Positions 4,267 to 31,434 of a DNA stretch of 34,598 bases are shown piece after piece. Where the stretch lies: the IMG/VR virus record IMGVR_UViG_2541047807_000005. One strand, written 5' to 3'. The notes beneath the pieces are model-generated. The model made no database searches. It saw nothing but the letters and a program-made list of their open reading frames with translations, and was not told where the DNA came from. The DNA comes from a virus. Its lineage: Duplodnaviria; Heunggongvirae; Uroviricota; Caudoviricetes. Numbering within the stretch: position 1 is the first letter of the stretch; the number at the start of each line of letters is the position of its first letter. The position numbers and the translations under genes are program-made.

Positions 4267-5120
4267 GCACCATCCTGAAATGGGCGGGTAATAAAACCAC
4301 CATTATGTCCGAACTGAAAAAATACCTTCCTGCTGGCACGCGACTGGTTGAACCTTTCGCGGGTTCTTGTGCTGTGATGATGGAGACGGATTACCCCAGC
4401 TATCTGGTTGCGGATATTAATCCTGATTTAATCAACCTCTATAAAAAGGTTGCTGCTGATTGTGAGGCGTTTATATCTCGTGCCAGAGCTTTATTTGAGG
4501 AAGCAAACAGAGAGGTGGCTTATTACAACATAAGGCAGGAGTTTAATTACTCCACTGAAATTACTGATTTCATGAAAGCGGTATATTTTCTGTATCTCAA
4601 TCGTCATGGTTACCGTGGGCTATGTCGCTATAACAAGAGCGGGTATTTCAACATTCCCTACGGTAATTATAAAAATCCGTATTTCCCTGAAAAAGAAATT
4701 CGCGCATTTGCAGAGAAAGCCCAGCGGGCAACGTTTATCTGCGCCAGCTTTGATGAAACGCTGGCGATGTTGAAGGCGGGGGATGTGGTGTATTGCGATC
4801 CGCTTTATGACGGTACGTTTTCCGGCTATCACACTGATGGCTTCACTGAAGATGACCAGTATCACCTGGCATCCGTTCTTGAACATCGATCATCTGAAGG
4901 TCATCCGGTCATTGTTTCTAACAGTGACACATCCCTGATCCGTTCGCTGTATCGCAATTTTACTCACCACTACATCAAGGCAAAACGCAGCATCGGCGTG
5001 GCAGCTGGTGAGAGTAAATCTGCAACAGAAATCATCGCTGTTTCCGGGCCGCGCTGCTGGGTAGGATTTGATCCTTTGCGTGGCGTGGATTGTTCCGTCG
5101 TGTACGGAGTGCGTGCATGA
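4263..5120 (+). CDS. dam: Dam-family DNA N6-adenine methyltransferase
   Basis: N-terminus LKWAGNK...EPFAGSCAV (SAM-binding) and catalytic-motif region VVYCDPLY; ATG 4263 with GGAGG RBS. Confidence 0.85.
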
Positions 5121-7531
5121 GCCATGCTGATATGAACAACTGCAGCGGCTTTAACGAGGTCGCCGCAGCATTCTCATGGAACAGCCCGAAAAAGGCCATT
5201 AACCCTTATCTGGACCCGGCGGAAGTTGCGCCGGTTTCTGCGCTTTCAAACCTGATCACTCTGTACGCTGCCGATAACGAGCAGGAACAACTGCGCCGCG
5301 AGGCACTGAGTGATCAGGTCTGGGAGCGTTATTTCTTTAATGAATCCCGTGATCCTGTCCAACGCGAAATGGAGCAGGATAAGCTAATTAGCCGGGCAAA
5401 GCTGGCGCATGAGCAGCAGCGTTTTAATCCAGACATGGCCATTCTGGCGGACGTCAACGCCCAGCCTTCCCATATCAGCAAGCCGCTGATGCAACGTATT
5501 AAATACTTCAGCAGCCTGGGCAGGCCAAAGGCTTATTCCCGCTATTTGCGTGAGACGATTAAGCCATGCTTGGAACGACTGGAGCATGTACGCGACAGTC
5601 AGCTATCCACTTCTTTTCGCTTTATGGCAAGCCATGAAGGGCTGGACGGCCTGCTGATCCTGCCTGAAATGAGTCAGGATCAGGTGAAACGCCTGTCCAC
5701 CTTGGTAGCTGCGCATATGAGCATGTGCCTTGATACAGCTTGTGGCGATTTGTATGCCACCGATGATGTTACGCCAGAAGAAATCCGCAAGACATGGGAA
5801 AAGGTGGCAGCGGAAACCCTGCGTCTGGATGTTATCCCGCCTGCGTTTGAGCAACTTTGTCGGAAAAGAAACCGCCGTAAACCCGTGCCTTATGAACTCA
5901 TTCCGGGTTCGCTGGCGCGTATGTTATGCGCCGACTGGTGGTATCGGAAATTATGGAAGATGCGTTGCGAATGGAGGGAAGAGCAGTTGCGTGCTGTTTG
6001 CCTGGTCAGCAAAAAAGCATCTCCCTATGTCAGCTATGAAGCCGTGATGCATAAACGTGAGCAGCGCCGTAAGTCGCTGGAGTTTTTCCGTTCTCATGAA
6101 CTGGTGAACGAAGACGGCGACACGCTGGATATGGAAGACGTGGTAAACGCCAGCAGCAGCAACCCTGCGCATCGCCGCAATGAGATGATGGCCTGTGTTA
6201 AAGGTCTGGAGCTTATCGCGGAAATGCGTGGTGACTGCGCCGTTTTCTACACCATCACCTGTCCGTCACGTTTCCATTCCACGCTAAATAACGGCAGGCC
6301 CAACCCGACCTGGACAAATGCGACGGTAAGACAAAGCAGTGATTATCTGGTCGGTATGTTTGCTGCATTTCGTAAGGCGATGCACAAAGCCGGATTACGC
6401 TGGTATGGCGTGCGGGTGGCTGAGCCGCATCATGACGGTACAGTTCACTGGCACCTGTTGTGTTTTATGCGCAAAAAAGATCGCCGCGCCATTACTGCTT
6501 TGTTGCGTAAGTTTGCCATTCGTGAAGACCGCGAGGAGCTGGGTAATAACACGGAACCACGCTTTAAGTCTGAGCTGATAAACCCGCGCAAAGGTACGCC
6601 AACAAGCTACATCGCGAAATACATCAGTAAGAACATTGACGGGCGTGGTCTGGCTGGCGAGATCAGCAAGGAAACGGGTAAATCCCTGCGTGATAACGCC
6701 GAATACGTTAATGCCTGGGCGTCTTTGCATCGTGTTCAGCAATTCCGCTTCTTTGGCATTCCGGGGCGTCAGGCTTACCGTGAACTGCGATTGCTGGCTG
6801 GTCAGGCGGCAAGGCAACAGGGGGACAAAAAAGCAGGTGCGCCGGTACTGGATAACCCGCGCCTTGATGCCATCCTGGCTGCCGCTGATGCTGGCTGTTT
6901 TGCCACCTACATCATGAAGCAGGGCGGCGTACTGGTTCCCCGCAAATATCACCTCATCAGAACCGCTTATGAAATCAACGAAGAGCCGACCGCCTATGGC
7001 GATCACGGTATTCGTATTTATGGCATCTGGTCACCCATTGCAGAGGGCAAGATCTGCACTCATGCGGTGAAGTGGAAAATGGTTCGTAAGGCCGTTGACA
7101 TTCAGGAGGCGGCAGCCGACCAGGGCGCTTGCGCCCCTTGGACTCGTGGCAATAACTGTCCCCTTGCTGAAAATTTGAACCAGCAGGAGAAAGATAAATC
7201 AGCTGATGGGGACACCAGAACGGACATTATCTGCATGGATGACAAGGAGTTGCACGATTATCTGCACAGTATGAGCAAAAAAGATCGCCGGGAACTGGCA
7301 GCAAGGTTACGCCTGGTGAAACCGAAACGGCGTAAAGACTACAAACAGCGAATTACAGACCATCAGCGACAGCAGCTTGTCTATGAACTGAAGTCCAGAG
7401 GATTTGATGGCAGCGAGAAAGAGGTCGAGTTGCTCCTTCGCGGTGGCAGTATTCCGTCAGGAGCAGGCCTGCGTATCTTCTATCGGAACCAGCGTCTGCA
7501 GGAGGATGATAAATGGCGGAACATGTATTAA
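5117..7531 (+). CDS. A: Replication initiation endonuclease gpA (rolling-circle Rep)
   Basis: 804 aa; HUH-like motif VHWHLL and active-site Tyr motif YIAKYISKN; synteny after early operon. Confidence 0.9.
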
Positions 7532-7623
7532 TTACGCTGATTAACAATTCGTGCTCTTAATAATACCAGGCATATCAGGCTGATGAACGTAAAAAAACGT
7601 TTTACATCAGTAAGATTATTATA

Positions 7624-7643
7624 TACTGCAAATATAAACAGTG
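7624..7643 (+). promoter_or_regulatory. Candidate LexA (SOS) operator TACTGCAAATATAAACAGTG
   Basis: CTGC-N8-ACAG, one mismatch to CTGT-N8-ACAG consensus, ~45 bp upstream of the 7685 start; analogous to the LexA-controlled tum promoter of phage 186. Confidence 0.55.
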
Positions 7644-7684
7644 GTTATGTATACAGTATTGCTTGTGGTGTCATAGGAGGAAAA

Positions 7685-7873
7685 ATGCAGGACTATTTTT
7701 TGGAGTCTTTAAAGCTCCAGCGCATTGATTTTTTTCTTAAGCTTGTAGCGGCTAGTGAGTGTAGTGATGAAGAGAAGGGGCTGGCTTTGCAGTGGGTTTC
7801 TGAACTAACAGATGAACTCATGGCAAAAATCAGAACCCACGAATACAACCGCTCAATGGATGTCATCAGTTGA
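7685..7873 (+). CDS. Small protein (62 aa), possible Tum-like SOS-induced antirepressor
   Basis: ATG 7685 with strong AGGAGG RBS (7675-7680); downstream of LexA-box-like site; position after gene A as in 186 tum. Confidence 0.45.
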   Translation: MQDYFLESLKLQRIDFFLKLVAASECSDEEKGLALQWVSELTDELMAKIRTHEYNRSMDVIS

Positions 7874-7883
7874 GGTGACTTTT

Positions 7884-8117
7884 ATGCGCATTGAAATAAT
7901 GATCGATAAAGAGCAGAAGATTAGCCAGTCTATCCTGGACGCCCTTGAATCCGAGCTTTACCGCAATCTGCGCCCCCTGTATCCAAAAACGGTAATTCGT
8001 ATCCGCAAAGGTAGCTCTAACGGTGTGGAACTGACCGGACTGCAACTGGACGAAGAAAGAAAACAAGTGATGAAAATTATGCAGAAGGTGTGGGAAGACG
8101 ACAGCTGGCTGCATTAG
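7884..8117 (+). CDS. DinI-like protein
   Basis: 77 aa, MRIEIMIDKEQ...KVWEDDSWLH resembles DinI family; GAGGTGA RBS. Confidence 0.8.
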   Translation: MRIEIMIDKEQKISQSILDALESELYRNLRPLYPKTVIRIRKGSSNGVELTGLQLDEERKQVMKIMQKVWEDDSWLH

Positions 8118-8245
8118 AGAACGTTGCGGATGATAAAACTAGCTTTTACCATCTGCAAGGCTGAACAACGATTGTAGCGAGGTGTTAGGTGGTTCAAAAG
8201 TAAAGCGGTTATTTTGCCCGTAAAAGTGAACCACCTGTATCTTGA

Positions 8246-8986
8246 TCAGTTTTCTTTGAATTTTTCACTTAATCGTTTCGTCAATACTTCGACAGATTCT
8301 TTGCGACCGGAGAACAAGTCATTGACGACGTACTCCATAATCTCAAAAGCATCCTCAATGTCTTTGACTTTTACTTCATCGTAGGTATGGCTTCCGGCAT
8401 TTCCTAAAAATTTAATTGCCATAAGAGGTCTTGAAAACGATCCGTATAATTCAGGTAGCATCCCTAAACGGTGGTGTAGAGTTATGCGTTTGCCATTATC
8501 ATTACGTTCAGCTACATCCATAGCGGTTAGCATTCTTTCAACTGAAATTCGAATTAGGTTTGCTGCTGCGCCAGGCTGTATTAGGAAAATGGAAAATGAG
8601 GCTTCAAGCGGTTCGGTAATTTCTTCTGGGCATTTTTCAGGTATTTCGAAAGGATGCAGTGATGGGTAAAAGGTGAAAGGTCTGTGCCATTGATAGTACT
8701 CAATATCATTTCTTTCTTCATCCCAACCTTGTTCCCATCCACTCTTACCAGTACAGGCCACAACTTCACCACATTGCATTCTTGAACAGCGGGCCATGCA
8801 ACTGAAAATAGATGAATCCATTTCTAGTTCAAACCAATCTTCACTGCGGAATTTTCGGGTATCATGTGTGTCATACGAGACGAAACTTTCTTTAATGATC
8901 TGTAGGGTTTTCTGATTGCAGTTAGGGCAGGGCCACTCAACCTGCATATCGTGGAAAAACGCACCAGAGAGCTTGTGCACAGTCAT
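8246..8986 (-). CDS. Hypothetical Cys-rich protein (246 aa) at the tin/old accessory position; candidate defence gene
   Basis: ORF with GAGGAA RBS; N-terminal CPNC...C-x3-C-x4-C-x5-C cluster; AT-rich versus phage core; opposite strand to gene A. Confidence 0.6.
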   Translation of the reverse strand: MTVHKLSGAFFHDMQVEWPCPNCNQKTLQIIKESFVSYDTHDTRKFRSEDWFELEMDSSIFSCMARCSRMQCGEVVACTGKSGWEQGWDEERNDIEYYQWHRPFTFYPSLHPFEIPEKCPEEITEPLEASFSIFLIQPGAAANLIRISVERMLTAMDVAERNDNGKRITLHHRLGMLPELYGSFSRPLMAIKFLGNAGSHTYDEVKVKDIEDAFEIMEYVVNDLFSGRKESVEVLTKRLSEKFKEN

Positions 8987-9187
8987 TCTTTGTGTTCCTC
9001 ATTTTTATGATTGGTAGGGATTGTATCTTCATACACGATTACAGTTGCATTAAAGATAAGCCATAGCAAGCTACTGGAAAAGAGACGAAACAGCTGGGCA
9101 TATCAGATGTTTTTTCTTAAGGTAAGTTGTTGTGCATGCCTATACTGCATGAGATTGCATGATCGTTTGAGGATCGTTATTGCTAAG

Positions 9188-9212
9188 GCCCACCAGAACT
9201 GGCGGGCTTTTG
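9188..9212 (+). terminator. Terminator-like hairpin (GCCCACCAG-aa-CTGGCGGGC then TTTT)
   Basis: 9-bp GC-rich stem with one mismatch followed by T run, inside the cos-containing intergenic region. Confidence 0.35.
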
Positions 9213-9256
9213 CGTAGAGCATGCAGGTGCATGAAAACAACTACATAAAGCGGGCA

Positions 9257-9275
9257 GGCGTGGCGGGGATACGAT
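9257..9275. other. Candidate cos cohesive-end sequence GGCGTGGCGGGGATACGAT
   Basis: Matches the 19-nt P2/186 cohesive end as I recall it (GGCG[A/T]GGCGGGGAAAGCA[C/T]) at about 14 to 16 of 19 positions; located upstream of portal Q as expected. Confidence 0.5.
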
Positions 9276-9344
9276 TGCGCGCAGAAGATTATTATTGGTA
9301 CACTGTCGGTGACTCTCTACGCAGATCTTACACATTAATTTCTA

Positions 9345-10157
9345 ATGGGGCATGCTATGATCTTTCTAAGTCATAATCACCGTGACAAAAGGTTTGTAAG
9401 TGTTATAGCGGAAAAACTAGCAGATGTTTATGGGCGTGATAACGTATTCTACGATTCTTGGTCTATCCAACCCGGAGAGGGTATTATTGACAAGATGAAT
9501 TTAGGAATGGAGAATGTATCGTTCTTTTTCTTTTTTGTCACAGAAAATAGCTTGGCAAGTAACATGGTAAAAATGGAATGGCAAAATGCTTTAATTAAGG
9601 CATCGTCCGGGAAGTGTAAATTTATACCAATACGTTGCCAGAATATATCCTTGCCTGCTCTGCTTACTCAAACGCTATATATTGATCTTTATTCGTATGG
9701 GATCGATGTGGCAATAAGACAAATTATAGATGTCATTAATCAACAAAATACGTATATTCCTAATCCTGAGAAGTATTCAAACCTCTCCTATGATATTAAG
9801 GATGATGATGGGGGTAAGATAGTGAAATTATCAGCAATGGATTTTTTAGAACCAATTGCTGATTTTATGATGATTATGGATAATACAATTAAGCATGATG
9901 ATGTTGTTGTTATGGTCAATGGAGAAAGCTCATTCACTCAGGGGTTTATTGAAAATGCATCTTTAGAAAATGGTATGAAAGTAAGTGGTGCCACTGTTGG
10001 CCTAAATCGGGGGTTAACACCAACGATGCCAATGTATGTTTCTCTTAGGTTAAAGGATGGTTCACCTTTGAATATATTTGCGGTGCTACATCGAGTAAGT
10101 ACCGAGCGTTATGCTCCTATACCACATAAAGCCGATGATGCCTTTAGAGTAAAATAA
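9345..10157 (+). CDS. TIR-domain protein (270 aa) with uncharacterised C-terminal domain; candidate anti-phage effector
   Basis: N-terminal region IFLSHNHRDKRFV...DSWSIQPGEGIIDKM...FFFFFVTENSLASNMVKMEW matches bacterial TIR pattern; AT-rich; between cos-like site and portal gene. Confidence 0.7.
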   Translation: MGHAMIFLSHNHRDKRFVSVIAEKLADVYGRDNVFYDSWSIQPGEGIIDKMNLGMENVSFFFFFVTENSLASNMVKMEWQNALIKASSGKCKFIPIRCQNISLPALLTQTLYIDLYSYGIDVAIRQIIDVINQQNTYIPNPEKYSNLSYDIKDDDGGKIVKLSAMDFLEPIADFMMIMDNTIKHDDVVVMVNGESSFTQGFIENASLENGMKVSGATVGLNRGLTPTMPMYVSLRLKDGSPLNIFAVLHRVSTERYAPIPHKADDAFRVK

Positions 10158-10166
10158 AAAGCAATA

Positions 10167-10192
10167 TGGTGGCTATATAATTAAGGCCACCA
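10167..10192. terminator. Hairpin between convergent TIR gene and portal gene (TGGTGGC...GCCACCA)
   Basis: 7-bp inverted repeat with 12-nt loop flanked by AT-rich sequence; possible bidirectional terminator. Confidence 0.3.
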
Positions 10193-10201
10193 ATTTATAT
10201 C

Positions 10202-11230
10202 TCATAAACAATAGGATGAAAATGCAATAACTTTCTCACCCAGCCAATGGTTTAACTCCTCCATGCGTTTCTGTAATGGCAAAAGTTCATTGCGCACAAA
10301 CACATTTGCGGCCTTCTCCACATCCCCAAACCCTCCAACATTATTAGGCATAATCCCCATCATTTGCGGCGGCACGCGGTGCGCAGCCATCATGTCATCA
10401 CGGCTCACGTTCTTGATATTCAAAAACTCATCCTTCGCCGCCACCTCTGACAACGGGATAATCTGAAGCCCGTCCTTTTTGCCGTTAGGCGAGTACATAA
10501 ACAGGTTGCGGAAGTTACCCGGACCTTTGGCACTTTTCATTGCATTGCGGAGGTTGTTCACGTCCTCCTGGTTCTGCGCAGCATCGGTCATGTACATGAT
10601 GAAGCCTGCATGACTACCGTTAATGTAATACTTGCGGCGGAACAGCGTGGCGGACTCATTGAGCAGGGCGGACGGAATGGCAGAAAGATAGCCGGGCAGG
10701 CCGTAGATTTCCTGGTTAATGTCCGGTTCCATCAGATGAAAAATGCTGCCTTTCGTGAACTGATACGGCTGGGTTGTCATACCGTATTGCACAAACCAGT
10801 AGGTATCCAGGTCTAACCCGCGTCGGGTGTATTTTGCCAGAGCAGGCTCAAGGGCGATAACTTCACCGAAGCGGTTCGTGCGTTTCTCCAGGTAGGCGTT
10901 ACCAAATACCAGATAGTCCTGCACAAAACGTGAAAAAGCCTGCTGGCTGAGCAGCGGGTGAGGGATGTAGGTACTGGTCAGAATGTTGCATTTCACCGCA
11001 ATTGGTGAACTGTGATGCACGGCGGCGCGGAAGGTGCGCGCCAGTCCGTCAAAGCTTACTGGCGGCTCATACCAGCGATCTGTCTGTACGCATTCCACAT
11101 AGTCCAGTAGTTCGCGGCGATCCAGAACAGGAACGGGATCACCGAAGCTGAATGCTTCGGCTGTAGTTTGACTTTTATGCCGGATCTGGTTTGTCGACGC
11201 AGCGCGGTTCTTCTTACTCTTTCCCATCAA
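10202..11230 (-). CDS. Q: Portal protein gpQ
   Basis: 342 aa, P2 gpQ-like size and synteny; 4-nt overlap with terminase stop. Confidence 0.9.
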   Translation of the reverse strand: MMGKSKKNRAASTNQIRHKSQTTAEAFSFGDPVPVLDRRELLDYVECVQTDRWYEPPVSFDGLARTFRAAVHHSSPIAVKCNILTSTYIPHPLLSQQAFSRFVQDYLVFGNAYLEKRTNRFGEVIALEPALAKYTRRGLDLDTYWFVQYGMTTQPYQFTKGSIFHLMEPDINQEIYGLPGYLSAIPSALLNESATLFRRKYYINGSHAGFIMYMTDAAQNQEDVNNLRNAMKSAKGPGNFRNLFMYSPNGKKDGLQIIPLSEVAAKDEFLNIKNVSRDDMMAAHRVPPQMMGIMPNNVGGFGDVEKAANVFVRNELLPLQKRMEELNHWLGEKVIAFSSYCL

Positions 11231-18578: not shown

Positions 18579-19316
18579 TCATTCATTGTCAAATAATTTT
18601 TGCTCTTTCAATATTTGTGTCGAAAAATTATTGCTTATTAATTTTACAAGCTTGCCGCACAAATTAAATGAATATCTAAAATAATCTAAGTCAGGGATGA
18701 GGTATTCTTTTTCTTCAGAGGATATTCCTGCCTCTAATAATTTTTTTTCATATCTTTGGTCCTTCACCCAATTATTATGGACTCCTGTGTCTCGTCTTGC
18801 TTTAATTTCAATGTATTGTTTTAAGAGATGTTCTATTTTCTTTTTGTCTAAGCATAAGAGTTTGCATAATTTATTGATGTATTCTTTGGGTGATCCAAAT
18901 GTGAGACTCGCGACTCCTTCGTTGACTAGATAGTCAAAAAGTTCATCTTCAGATAATGACTTAAACACCCCATAATCACACTTAATTTTATTTAGTTTTT
19001 CTGGATTGATCCTGAAGGTCAACTTCATGATTTCAATAATGTAATCTTCAAATGCTGAAACAAGCGAACTAAAGCACAATGATGGCATATGTTTTGTTAT
19101 TAAATCATGCCGTATTCCTTTATCTGAGATTTCAGGTGAATGTTTTTCCAGAAAGCATTCAAGATTTGTATAAGCCTCATAAAGCTGAGGGTTAGTTTCC
19201 TCATTGGCGTGAGAGATGGCAATGTTTTGAAATATAATTGTTCTGAATAAAATATCAGCTTTAATAAAATATGATGATGTGATTTTATCCAGGAAGAGAT
19301 AATTATCGGAGTGCAT
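18579..19316 (-). CDS. AT-rich moron protein (245 aa) with R-x4-H HEPN-like motif; candidate abortive-infection/toxin RNase
   Basis: ORF opposite to the late operon between S and V; GAGGAA RBS; motif ARRDTGVH at residues 174-180 (coords ~18777-18797); strongly AT-rich. Confidence 0.6.
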   Translation of the reverse strand: MHSDNYLFLDKITSSYFIKADILFRTIIFQNIAISHANEETNPQLYEAYTNLECFLEKHSPEISDKGIRHDLITKHMPSLCFSSLVSAFEDYIIEIMKLTFRINPEKLNKIKCDYGVFKSLSEDELFDYLVNEGVASLTFGSPKEYINKLCKLLCLDKKKIEHLLKQYIEIKARRDTGVHNNWVKDQRYEKKLLEAGISSEEKEYLIPDLDYFRYSFNLCGKLVKLISNNFSTQILKEQKLFDNE

Positions 19317-29847: not shown

Positions 29848-30329
29848 TGATGGTGCTGGGATTGTACGTGTTTATGCTGCGCACCGTGCCGTATCAGGAA
29901 CTGCAGTATCAACGCAGCTGGCGACATGCGGCAAACAGCCGGGTAAACCGTCGTCCGTCCACGCAGTTTCTGGGACCGGAAAACGATATGCTGACGCTTT
30001 CCGGTGTTCTTATGCCGGAGATAACAGGCGGCAGGCTGTCGTTGCTGGCACTGGAGCAGATGGCAGAACAGGGGAAAGCATGGCCCCTGATTGAAGGCAG
30101 CGGCACGATTTACGGCATGTATGTGATTGAGGGACTGAATCAGACTAAAACGGAGTTTTTCCGCGACGGTATGCCGCGCCGGATTGAGTTCACCCTGTCG
30201 CTAAAACGGGTGGATGAATCCCTGTCCGATATGTTCGGTGATCTCAGTACTCAACTGAATAATCTGCAGGACACGGCAACGTCTGCTTTAAGCGATATCA
30301 GTAAAACGGTGGGAGGGCTGCTGTCGTGA
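29844..30329 (+). CDS. U: Tail protein gpU
   Basis: 161 aa, overlaps T stop, synteny. Confidence 0.8.
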   Translation: MMMVLGLYVFMLRTVPYQELQYQRSWRHAANSRVNRRPSTQFLGPENDMLTLSGVLMPEITGGRLSLLALEQMAEQGKAWPLIEGSGTIYGMYVIEGLNQTKTEFFRDGMPRRIEFTLSLKRVDESLSDMFGDLSTQLNNLQDTATSALSDISKTVGGLLS

Positions 30330-31434
30330 ATTTCAGCTCTGAACTGCTTAACAAAGGCAACAAAACTCCGGCATTCAGCATCAGTGTTGAGGGCAGGGAT
30401 ATCACCACTGTGCTGGACAACCGCCTGATGGGGCTTACGCTGACGGATAACCGGGGCTTTGAAGCGGACCAGCTTGATCTGGAGCTGGACGACGCTGATG
30501 GAAAAATCGTGCTGCCGCGCCGTGGTGCGGTCATTACGCTGGCGCTGGGCTGGAAGGGACAGCCGCTTTTCCCGAAAGGGGCATTCACGGTGGACGAGAT
30601 TGAACACACTGGCGCACCGGACCGCCTGACCATCCGGGCGCGAAGTGCTGATTTTCGGGAAACGCTGAATACCCGCCGTGAAAAATCGTGGCACAAGACC
30701 ACGGTCGGGGAAGTGGTGAAGGAAATAGCTGCGCGGCACAAACTGAAGATGGCACTGGGTAAAGACCTGTCGGATAAGCCCGTGGAACATATAGACCAGA
30801 CCAATGAGAGTGACGGCAGTTTTCTGATGCGGCTGGCGCGCCAGTACGGTGCTATTGCGTCGGTGAAAAATGGCAATCTGTTATTCATCCGGCAGGGACA
30901 GGGCAAAAGCGCCAGCGGTAAACCTCTGCCGGTGATCACTATCACACGCAAGGACGGCGACAGTCACCGCTTTACCCTGGCAGATCGCGGAGCCTATACG
31001 GGCGTAATTGCCAGTTGGTTGCATACCCGCGAACCCGCGAACCCGCGAAGAAAGAAAGCACCACGGTGAAGCGTAAGCGCAGGACCGCAAAGCAGAAGAA
31101 AGAGCCGGAAGCGAAGCAGGGCGATTACCTGGTGGGTACGGATGAAAACGTGCTGGTACTTAATCGCACTTATGCCAACCGGAGCAACGCCGAACGGGCA
31201 GCGAAAATGCAGTGGGAACGCCTGCAACGCGGCGTTGCATCATTCTCGCTACAACCGGCGGAAGGGCGGGCAGATCTCTACACAGAAATGCCTGTGAAGG
31301 TCAGTGGCTTTAAACAGCCGATAGATGATGCGGAATGGACCATTACGACTCTGACGCATACCGTCAGCCCGGATAACGGTTTTACGACCAGTCTGGAGCT
31401 TGAAGTGAGGATTGATGATTTCGAAATGGAATGA
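30326..31434 (+). pseudogene. D: Tail protein gpD, interrupted by frameshift at an 8-bp tandem repeat (two ORFs 30326..31069 and 31015..31434)
   Basis: The two ORFs together equal P2 gpD length (~386 aa) and both resemble gpD; removing one CCCGCGAA copy fuses the frames. Confidence 0.75.
31026..31049 (+). repeat. Tandem octamer CCCGCGAA x3 within gene D
   Basis: Three perfect direct copies at 31026-31033, 31034-31041, 31042-31049. Confidence 0.9.

Follow-up and report, generated by a model that had tools for sequence, protein, structure and literature searches.

We describe a gene for a TIR-domain protein at positions 9357-10157 (plus strand) of a 34,598-nt stretch of viral DNA (IMG/VR record IMGVR_UViG_2541047807_000005; the whole stretch is hereafter called the window), which is a P2-family prophage of the 186/Felsduovirus type of Escherichia coli containing an integrase, CI and CII regulators, replication gene A, portal, terminase and tail genes and an ogr/Delta gene. 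The best explanation of the data is that the product is an immune-type protein, self-contained and horizontally mobile, whose gene is carried as a moron in the slot between cos and the portal gene of this 186/P2-like prophage. The data directly show that the protein has a TIR fold, retains the catalytic Glu and consists of two domains, that its gene occupies a cargo position and is of foreign origin, and that the gene has no conserved partner and is recurrently carried by mobile elements. By analogy with SpbK, a TIR protein of Bacillus subtilis, we favour a model in which the protein would act as a one-gene abortive-infection hydrolase of nicotinamide adenine dinucleotide (NAD+; NADase) triggered by sensing through its C-terminal β-sandwich, a reading to which we assign a probability of about 0.5. 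The features of the gene are the following, residue numbers being those of the 266-residue form of the protein (adding four gives the numbering of a 270-residue form, Glu74 then being Glu78):

9357-10157, plus strand: coding sequence of the TIR plus β-sandwich protein, 266 amino acids and stop, start from RefSeq and homologue starts; the in-frame ATG at 9345 would give 270 amino acids
9357-9740, plus strand: TIR domain, residues 1-128, from the AlphaFold2 model and Pfam TIR_2
9447-9482, plus strand: BB-loop region by position, residues 31-42, FYDSWSIQPGEG, the most conserved stretch of the family
9576-9578, plus strand: GAA codon of Glu74, the putative catalytic Glu, in the motif MVKMEWQNA, from HMMER alignments and invariant
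9777-10124, plus strand: β-sandwich domain, residues 141-256, the proposed sensor or assembly module, from the model and specific to the family

A preliminary description of this DNA, made from its letters alone, had reported an open reading frame (ORF) of 270 amino acids at 9345-10157 (plus strand). The ORF is present, but its start is more likely the ATG at 9357, since RefSeq starts the same gene there (266 amino acids, WP_000576798.1, 'toll/interleukin-1 receptor domain-containing protein'), the equivalent Met is the first residue in all 31 of the 31 aligned homologues (MIF.SH) and GGGG is located 8 nt upstream of this ATG.

The bacterial TIR signature recognised in the N-terminal part by the preliminary description is borne out by Pfam TIR_2 (PF13676), which matches residues 6-117 with 82.6 bits (cutoff 28; E=4.1e-23), and by the flavodoxin-like TIR fold of the structural model. 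The AlphaFold2 model of the full-length protein, built with 32 homologues (predicted local distance difference test score, pLDDT, 86.9), shows the TIR domain (residues 1-128) followed by a short linker and an all-β domain (approximately residues 141-256), the relative orientation of the two being undefined as the predicted template modelling score (pTM) of this model is 0.54. Its position in the modelled fold suggests that the stretch of residues 31-42 is the BB loop. Within it, FYDSWSIQPG (residues 31-40) shows a column entropy of 0.07 bits and is near-invariant from E. coli to Bacteroidota and bacteria of the candidate phyla radiation (CPR), F31, Y32, D33, W35, S36, Q38, P39, G40 and G42 being invariant in the family, and the low pLDDT at residues 36-39 of the model suggests a flexible loop. 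The Glu that had been singled out in the KMEW region, Glu74, is invariant in 32 family sequences and directly followed by an invariant Trp, and the surrounding motif MV.(L/M)EWQNA (9564-9590) is almost invariant over the same range from E. coli to Bacteroidota and CPR bacteria. HMMER aligns Glu74 with a Glu of AbTIR (NYELDG), of Cat1 (WDELEQ) and of an 824-residue TPR protein (PDB 9m0n). The aligned Glu of AbTIR is the residue we take to be its catalytic E208; in NAD+-cleaving TIR domains the catalytic Glu occupies the helix that follows the third strand.

Sequence comparison with known proteins places the TIR domain among effectors. In the PDB the family profile matches Cat1 best (E=2.4e-9), next to the TPR protein 9m0n (E=3.1e-9); the NCBIfam retron-TIR model matches with E=5.8e-10, and among PADLOC models the TIR-NLR model is closest (E=4.8e-8), the ThsB models being weaker (E=6.7e-4, 0.011 and 0.036). 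At the level of sequence, the TIR domain is closest to effectors that deplete NAD+ by themselves (Cat1, TIR-NLR-type and retron-TIR proteins) and not to ThsB signal generators. TIR-level similarity extends to Brucella TcpB (4lqc), PdTIR (3h16) and other bacterial TIR proteins, and three of the four E. coli strains bearing the gene came from humans, both of which would fit a virulence factor hitting animal Toll-like receptor (TLR)/MyD88 signalling in the manner of TcpC, BtpA and TirS. We regard such a role as extremely improbable: Tcp proteins carry their TIR domain at the C-terminus, behind an N-terminal targeting region, and are confined to host-associated pathogens, whereas the TIR domain encoded in the window starts at residue 2, at the extreme N-terminus, the protein lacks both a secretion signal and an N-terminal region for membrane binding, and the family is found in free-living and environmental bacteria (Dehalococcoidales, Flavobacterium, marine Proteobacteria and CPR), so that both architecture and distribution differ from those of TcpC, BtpA/TcpB and TirS.

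The second half of the protein is a domain of its own. Residues 131-266 modelled alone with 46 sequences form a nine-stranded β-sandwich (pLDDT 91.5, pTM 0.83). The preliminary description had recognised no family in this part, and the same holds for our searches: the C-terminal 125 or so amino acids match no Pfam, NCBIfam, PADLOC or PHROG family, Foldseek against a viral structure library returns nothing for the β-sandwich at E<=0.001, and beyond the term β-sandwich the domain cannot be classified. A match to a well-characterised non-defence protein, which had been named as an outcome speaking against a defence role, was not found either. In a phmmer search of 1.84 billion representative proteins, the β-sandwich is confined to its own family or to N-terminally truncated fragments of it, the sole exception being a 44-residue repeat-type match in a protein of 3687 amino acids. 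The two domains evolve at different rates, the mean pairwise identity within the family being 61% for the TIR domain versus 33% for the β-sandwich, and this combination of a conserved TIR domain and a variable β-sandwich is what would be expected from the sequences of a catalytic module joined to a sensor engaged in an arms race. To our knowledge, none of the characterised TIR systems uses a β-sandwich fold of this kind as its sensor.

The gene occupies a slot between cos and the portal gene, delimited by the following features:

9257-9275, plus strand: cos cohesive-end sequence GGCGTGGCGGGGATACGAT, agreeing with the cos annotated in Salmonella phage SEN8 at 18 of 19 positions and with cosL of P2 at 15 of 19
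9283-10201, no strand assigned: foreign cargo segment of 919 bp with 36.2% guanine plus cytosine (GC), starting 8 nt past cos and ending at the portal stop codon
10167-10192, no strand assigned: GC-rich hairpin in the space separating the TIR and portal genes, which converge, found by folding; P2 annotates tQ in the same place
10202-11230, minus strand: gene of the portal protein (gpQ homologue), which bounds the slot on the right, from the ORF list, annotated as 'phage portal protein' in RefSeq

The P2 cos sequence found no match in the window with up to three mismatches allowed; the local cos differs from it at 4 of 19 positions and was located instead through the end of the SEN8 record (position 35203), which aligns to window position 9256, together with the SEN8 cos. 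The distance between cos and the portal stop (10202) amounts to 926 nt, compared to 167 nt in P2, in which cosL spans 1-19, the stop of Q lies at 187 and the tQ terminator alone is found in between. An alignment of three prophage alleles shows them to be identical through 9282, then unrelated, with homology returning at the portal gene, which delimits 9283-10201 as a discrete cargo cassette. In the prophage of E. coli Rb-23, inserted between rcdA and ybjL, the sequence is identical across the cargo region. The GC content of the TIR coding sequence is 36.2%, versus 51.2% for the portal gene, 56.4% for the terminase gene, 52.7% for gpA (5090-7531) and 51.2% for the whole window. Carriage is patchy, with the cassette being present in 4 of 5426 complete E. 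coli genomes, 1281 of which match some part of the query 7532-10201. The strong AT-richness, the cargo position beside cos and the horizontal acquisition put forward in the preliminary description are all confirmed by these data.

Related prophages use the same slot for different genes. Sister prophages carry there either a 422-residue AAA-like protein (PADLOC defence candidate PDC-S59, E=4.8e-72) or IS1 (an insertion sequence, IS) plus a DUF6953 gene, and SEN8 carries the gene of a 332-residue hypothetical protein plus an HNH endonuclease gene. The alternative cargoes of the slot lie at 5360-6628 of locus L003, 5991-7051 of L002 and 128-2142 of L137, every allele breaking approximately 8 nt past the end of cos. 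In prophages of the 186/Felsduovirus type, the portal side of cos forms a distinct cargo slot, the genes of which turn over separately. That the gpA-Q region as a whole is a defence hotspot of P2-like phages has been validated by experiment (PMC9122126; PMC9519451), and the gene described here belongs to this region, being located between A and Q, beside cos, with cargo that differs among related prophages.

The hairpin at 10167-10192 has a minimum free energy of -13.8 kcal/mol (z = -3.55) on the plus strand and of -14.1 kcal/mol (z = -2.95) on the minus strand. As a T-run follows it on the minus strand, it is likely the terminator of the portal/terminase operon and the counterpart of P2 tQ, and it probably also halts transcription of the TIR gene. 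A simple terminator scan did not call this hairpin and made no call that was better than those in shuffled sequences.

The family to which the protein belongs is large and uniform in size. A word-indexed search at E<=0.001 yielded 945 protein clusters; the best 120 are all 253-298 amino acids long with 94-100% query coverage, and the 119 besides the query's own cluster are 41-52% identical to it. A species scan using one genome per species gave 139 carriers. The best 80 of these, on which the neighbourhood analysis is based, belong to Bacteroidota, Alpha-, Beta-, Gamma- and Deltaproteobacteria, Firmicutes, Chloroflexi, Spirochaetes, Ignavibacteria, Gracilibacteria and Marinamargulisbacteria. 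Lone homologues are found in the nin region of Enterobacter lambdoid prophages (L005/L006, 8001-8813) and in an integrase-bearing element of Burkholderia multivorans; a homologue adjoins IS elements in carrier P0023 and another resides on an 8.3-kb Bacillus thuringiensis plasmid (L134, 3326-4129), the matches in a DNA search of plasmids being two small Bacillus plasmids only. Among IMG/VR viral contigs, 35 carry a homologue, and in 7 of the 23 remaining after dereplication a terminase subunit is encoded within three genes of it. On several unrelated viral contigs (L107, L112, L113, L120 and L124, at approximately 6001-6780) the homologue is located directly upstream of the small and large terminase genes. 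This repeated placement beside packaging genes may or may not be meaningful.

Such contexts bear on a role in which the protein serves the phage itself during the lytic cycle, be it by destroying NAD-derived immune signals or their precursor, by decapping NAD-RNA or by excluding competitors during replication. In unrelated phage contigs the gene is indeed co-oriented with lytic genes, either in the nin region, in which it lies between the replication genes and NinB/NinG, or, on other contigs, just upstream of the genes for the small and large terminase subunits, and TIR proteins are reported to be able to decap NAD-RNA (PMC10937652). We nevertheless judge a lytic role to be unlikely, because most family members are found outside recognisable phages, beside unrelated chromosomal genes, because tblastn against 50,697 deposited phage genomes detected no homologue, and because the gene in the window faces the late operon in convergent orientation with the terminator hairpin between the two, an arrangement typical of a moron expressed in the lysogen.

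The distribution also speaks to the suggestion that the gene is a selfish toxin or addiction cargo, or a decaying passenger without function. A lone gene on mobile elements whose enzymology could be lethal would fit this suggestion, and the prophage itself may be defective given its split gpD (see below). No antitoxin-like neighbour is conserved, and both domains are kept at full length across the roughly 945 protein clusters, which argues for selection on the intact protein; an addiction or passenger gene is therefore very improbable in our view.

The search for a partner points to a protein acting alone. Clustering of ORFs within 5 kb of the gene at 80 loci from 80 species revealed no neighbour family in more than five loci; the immediate neighbours share no mutual similarity by blastp (E<0.01) or phmmer --max (E<1), all scores being below 7 bits; and Pfam and PADLOC scans of 149 flanking proteins found no family in more than four. 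Co-oriented upstream ORFs of 150-330 amino acids, 53 of the 73 upstream genes being on the same strand, were considered as a hidden partner and rejected, as they share no similarity. Apart from the TIR gene itself, complete ORFs of 40 or more amino acids within 9283-10201 are limited to a 49-residue antisense ORF inside that gene, and two further small ORFs merely overlap the left edge of the segment from the cos region. On the other side of cos lies one further gene of interest:

8246-8986, minus strand: DUF4145 gene, 246 amino acids, WP_000215882.1, matching Pfam DUF4145 (E=4.9e-13) and phrog_1305 'DNA binding protein' (E=8e-50)

Its product weakly resembles the PADLOC PD-T7-4 model (E=1.6e-5), and the gene is kept to the left of cos in many P2-like prophages and in SEN8, irrespective of the cargo on the portal side. 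The gene may itself serve in defence. As a partner of the TIR protein we reject it, because it lies across cos and an identical protein is encoded beside different cos-Q cargo. A DUF4145 echo next to the homologue of Burkholderia multivorans, a convergent gene at 7114-7692 (minus strand) of L008, is sub-threshold (E=0.004), has no equivalent at any other locus and is probably a coincidence. Of the stand-alone or two-gene system that the preliminary description had left open, the stand-alone form is favoured, given the lack of a conserved neighbour in 80 species, and the independence of DUF4145 speaks against the two-gene form.

In line with the preliminary description, which saw no ThsA-like or cyclase partner nearby, the prophage annotation contains no ThsA, SIR2, SLOG, Macro, caspase-like, cyclase or CRISPR gene, and a CARF partner is likewise absent. 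This affects the possibility that the protein is an orphan ThsB-like generator, which on infection would produce a cyclic-ADP-ribose-type or other NAD-derived messenger and rely on a ThsA-like effector elsewhere in the host genome to kill the cell. Like ThsB, the small bacterial TIR protein to which the detection of phage infection is ascribed in Thoeris, the protein is compact. Thoeris needs an adjacent ThsA, however, and none is present in the prophage or in the family contexts examined; the prophage has no SIR2-SLOG, Macro or caspase-like gene to take its place, no neighbour is conserved, and the nearest TIR relatives are self-sufficient NADase effectors. Since a gene hopping alone between phyla, phages and plasmids cannot count on a matching effector, we consider an orphan generator improbable.

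Compared with the known TIR systems, the protein of the window fails the defining features of every named system considered, although single-gene TIR defence as a class is not new: SpbK and TIR-NLR as well as TIR_2 proteins in P2 hotspots are already known. SpbK of the B. subtilis element ICEBs1 (PDB 9phb) is a single-gene, element-borne TIR NADase mediating abortive infection, which is activated by directly binding the SPbeta portal protein (PMC11984713). Its domain order is reversed, a trigger-binding domain at the N-terminus being followed by the TIR domain, with the TIR match at residues 140-210 of 290, and similarity to the family profile is marginal (E=0.0075) and restricted to the TIR domain, the sensor domains being unrelated. 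Rst_TIR-NLR, encoded beside cos in the hotspot of P4 satellites, is a validated defence system made up of one TIR gene (PMC9122126). It shares with the protein described here the cos-adjacent carriage and, as the closest PADLOC match, the TIR domain, but at approximately 824 amino acids it comprises a central STAND NTPase and a C-terminal TPR sensor, whereas the 266-residue protein has no NTPase or TPR match; 9m0n is presumably this TIR-NLR, judged by its length being equal to that of the 824-position PADLOC model. Cat1 (PDB 9mud) is described as degrading NAD+ through filament networks (PMC12162218). It is the best PDB match, of similar size (263 amino acids) and with an N-terminal TIR match, but its second domain is a CARF domain responding to type III CRISPR cyclic oligoadenylate, whereas the second domain here is all-β. 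More generally, the signal-activated TIR proteins (TIR-SAVED, TIR-STING, PycTIR and Cat1) carry a SAVED, STING, cNMP-binding or CARF domain as nucleotide sensor, whereas the protein of the window lacks such a domain and has neither a cyclase gene nor a type III CRISPR locus nearby.

Further cargo genes of the gpA-Q region include tin, old, 2TM+1TM+TIR of phage AC1 and TIR_2/SEFIR proteins (PMC9122126, PMC9519451). They share the cos-adjacent hotspot, the AT-richness and the exchangeability with the gene described here, which differs in its position between cos and the portal gene. The TIR protein of AC1 (Rst_2TM_1TM_TIR) works with two membrane proteins, and no genes of this kind are present in 9283-10201. 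The PADLOC model PDC-S66 (282 positions) is matched by residues 6-96 only, at profile positions 151-240 (E=1.2e-7), so its architecture differs. In the literature we found no paper on WP_000576798 or on this TIR-β-sandwich architecture, and the part of the Rousset supplementary tables that was covered, tables which list the DUF4145 neighbour and other TIR_2 proteins, does not contain WP_000576798.

From the features described above we infer NADase activity, sensing by the β-sandwich, oligomerisation and a defence phenotype, which can be combined into the following model. In the uninfected lysogen the protein would be present in an inactive state. Upon infection by a foreign phage, the fast-evolving β-sandwich would bind a phage cue, most likely a structural or packaging protein, and binding would allow the TIR domains to assemble head-to-tail via the invariant BB-loop region, forming composite active sites around Glu74. 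The hydrolysis of NAD+ would then prevent the infected cell from supporting further phage growth, and this abortive infection would shield the clonal lysogen population and thereby the prophage.

Several observations weigh against this reading. Four residues before Glu74, the family has a Met where AbTIR, Cat1 and the 9m0n TPR protein have a Trp; judged from the alignment, this swap and the Trp following Glu74 could indicate a different substrate or product specificity. At 61%, the identity of the TIR domain across phyla is higher than is usual for defence genes. Since the structural neighbours of the β-sandwich are generic and none is informative, a sensing role of this domain is proposed purely by analogy, and the domain might just as well serve oligomerisation or localisation instead of sensing. 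Upstream of the TIR gene there is no convincing sigma-70 promoter, the promoter scan performing no better than on shuffled sequences. Many homologues are surrounded by housekeeping genes and do not lie in clear defence islands, a few flanking genes being restriction-modification, IetS or helicase-type defence genes, and the absence of homologues from the deposited phage genomes mentioned above counts here as well. A more far-reaching version of the model would see a minimal one-protein receptor-effector family of approximately 260 residues in more than ten phyla, the β-sandwich of which directly recognises a conserved packaging or virion component of phages, temperate phages carrying the gene beside cos, terminase or portal genes against competitors while their own proteins escape recognition. 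We offer this version as doubtful.

Two side observations concern the prophage outside the slot. The late-control/tail gene D is split into overlapping ORFs at 30326-31069 and 31015-31434 (window 30326-31434, plus strand), and gene D of Rb-23 is likewise flagged as frameshifted by RefSeq; the split gene suggests that the prophage may be defective or that there is an assembly error. A second AT-rich moron is located at 18579-19316 (minus strand; 245 amino acids, 31.6% GC), on the opposite strand between a gpS-like virion-morphogenesis gene and the baseplate gene V. It has no significant Pfam match (best E=0.013, below the cutoff) and no PADLOC match.

As a whole, the protein is a compact, widespread and well-defined candidate, and the proposed role is plausible rather than startling. 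If the prediction fails, the family remains an unexplained, widely mobile TIR protein. If it holds true, the protein would be among the smallest complete TIR immune proteins, combining sensor and effector in 266 residues, and the contrast of a conserved BB-loop region and catalytic helix with a fast-evolving second domain would offer a clean system in which to study the triggering of TIR assembly. The portal-side cos slot would be useful for mining more defence genes, and the family would also serve as a model for how prophages arm their hosts against rival phages.

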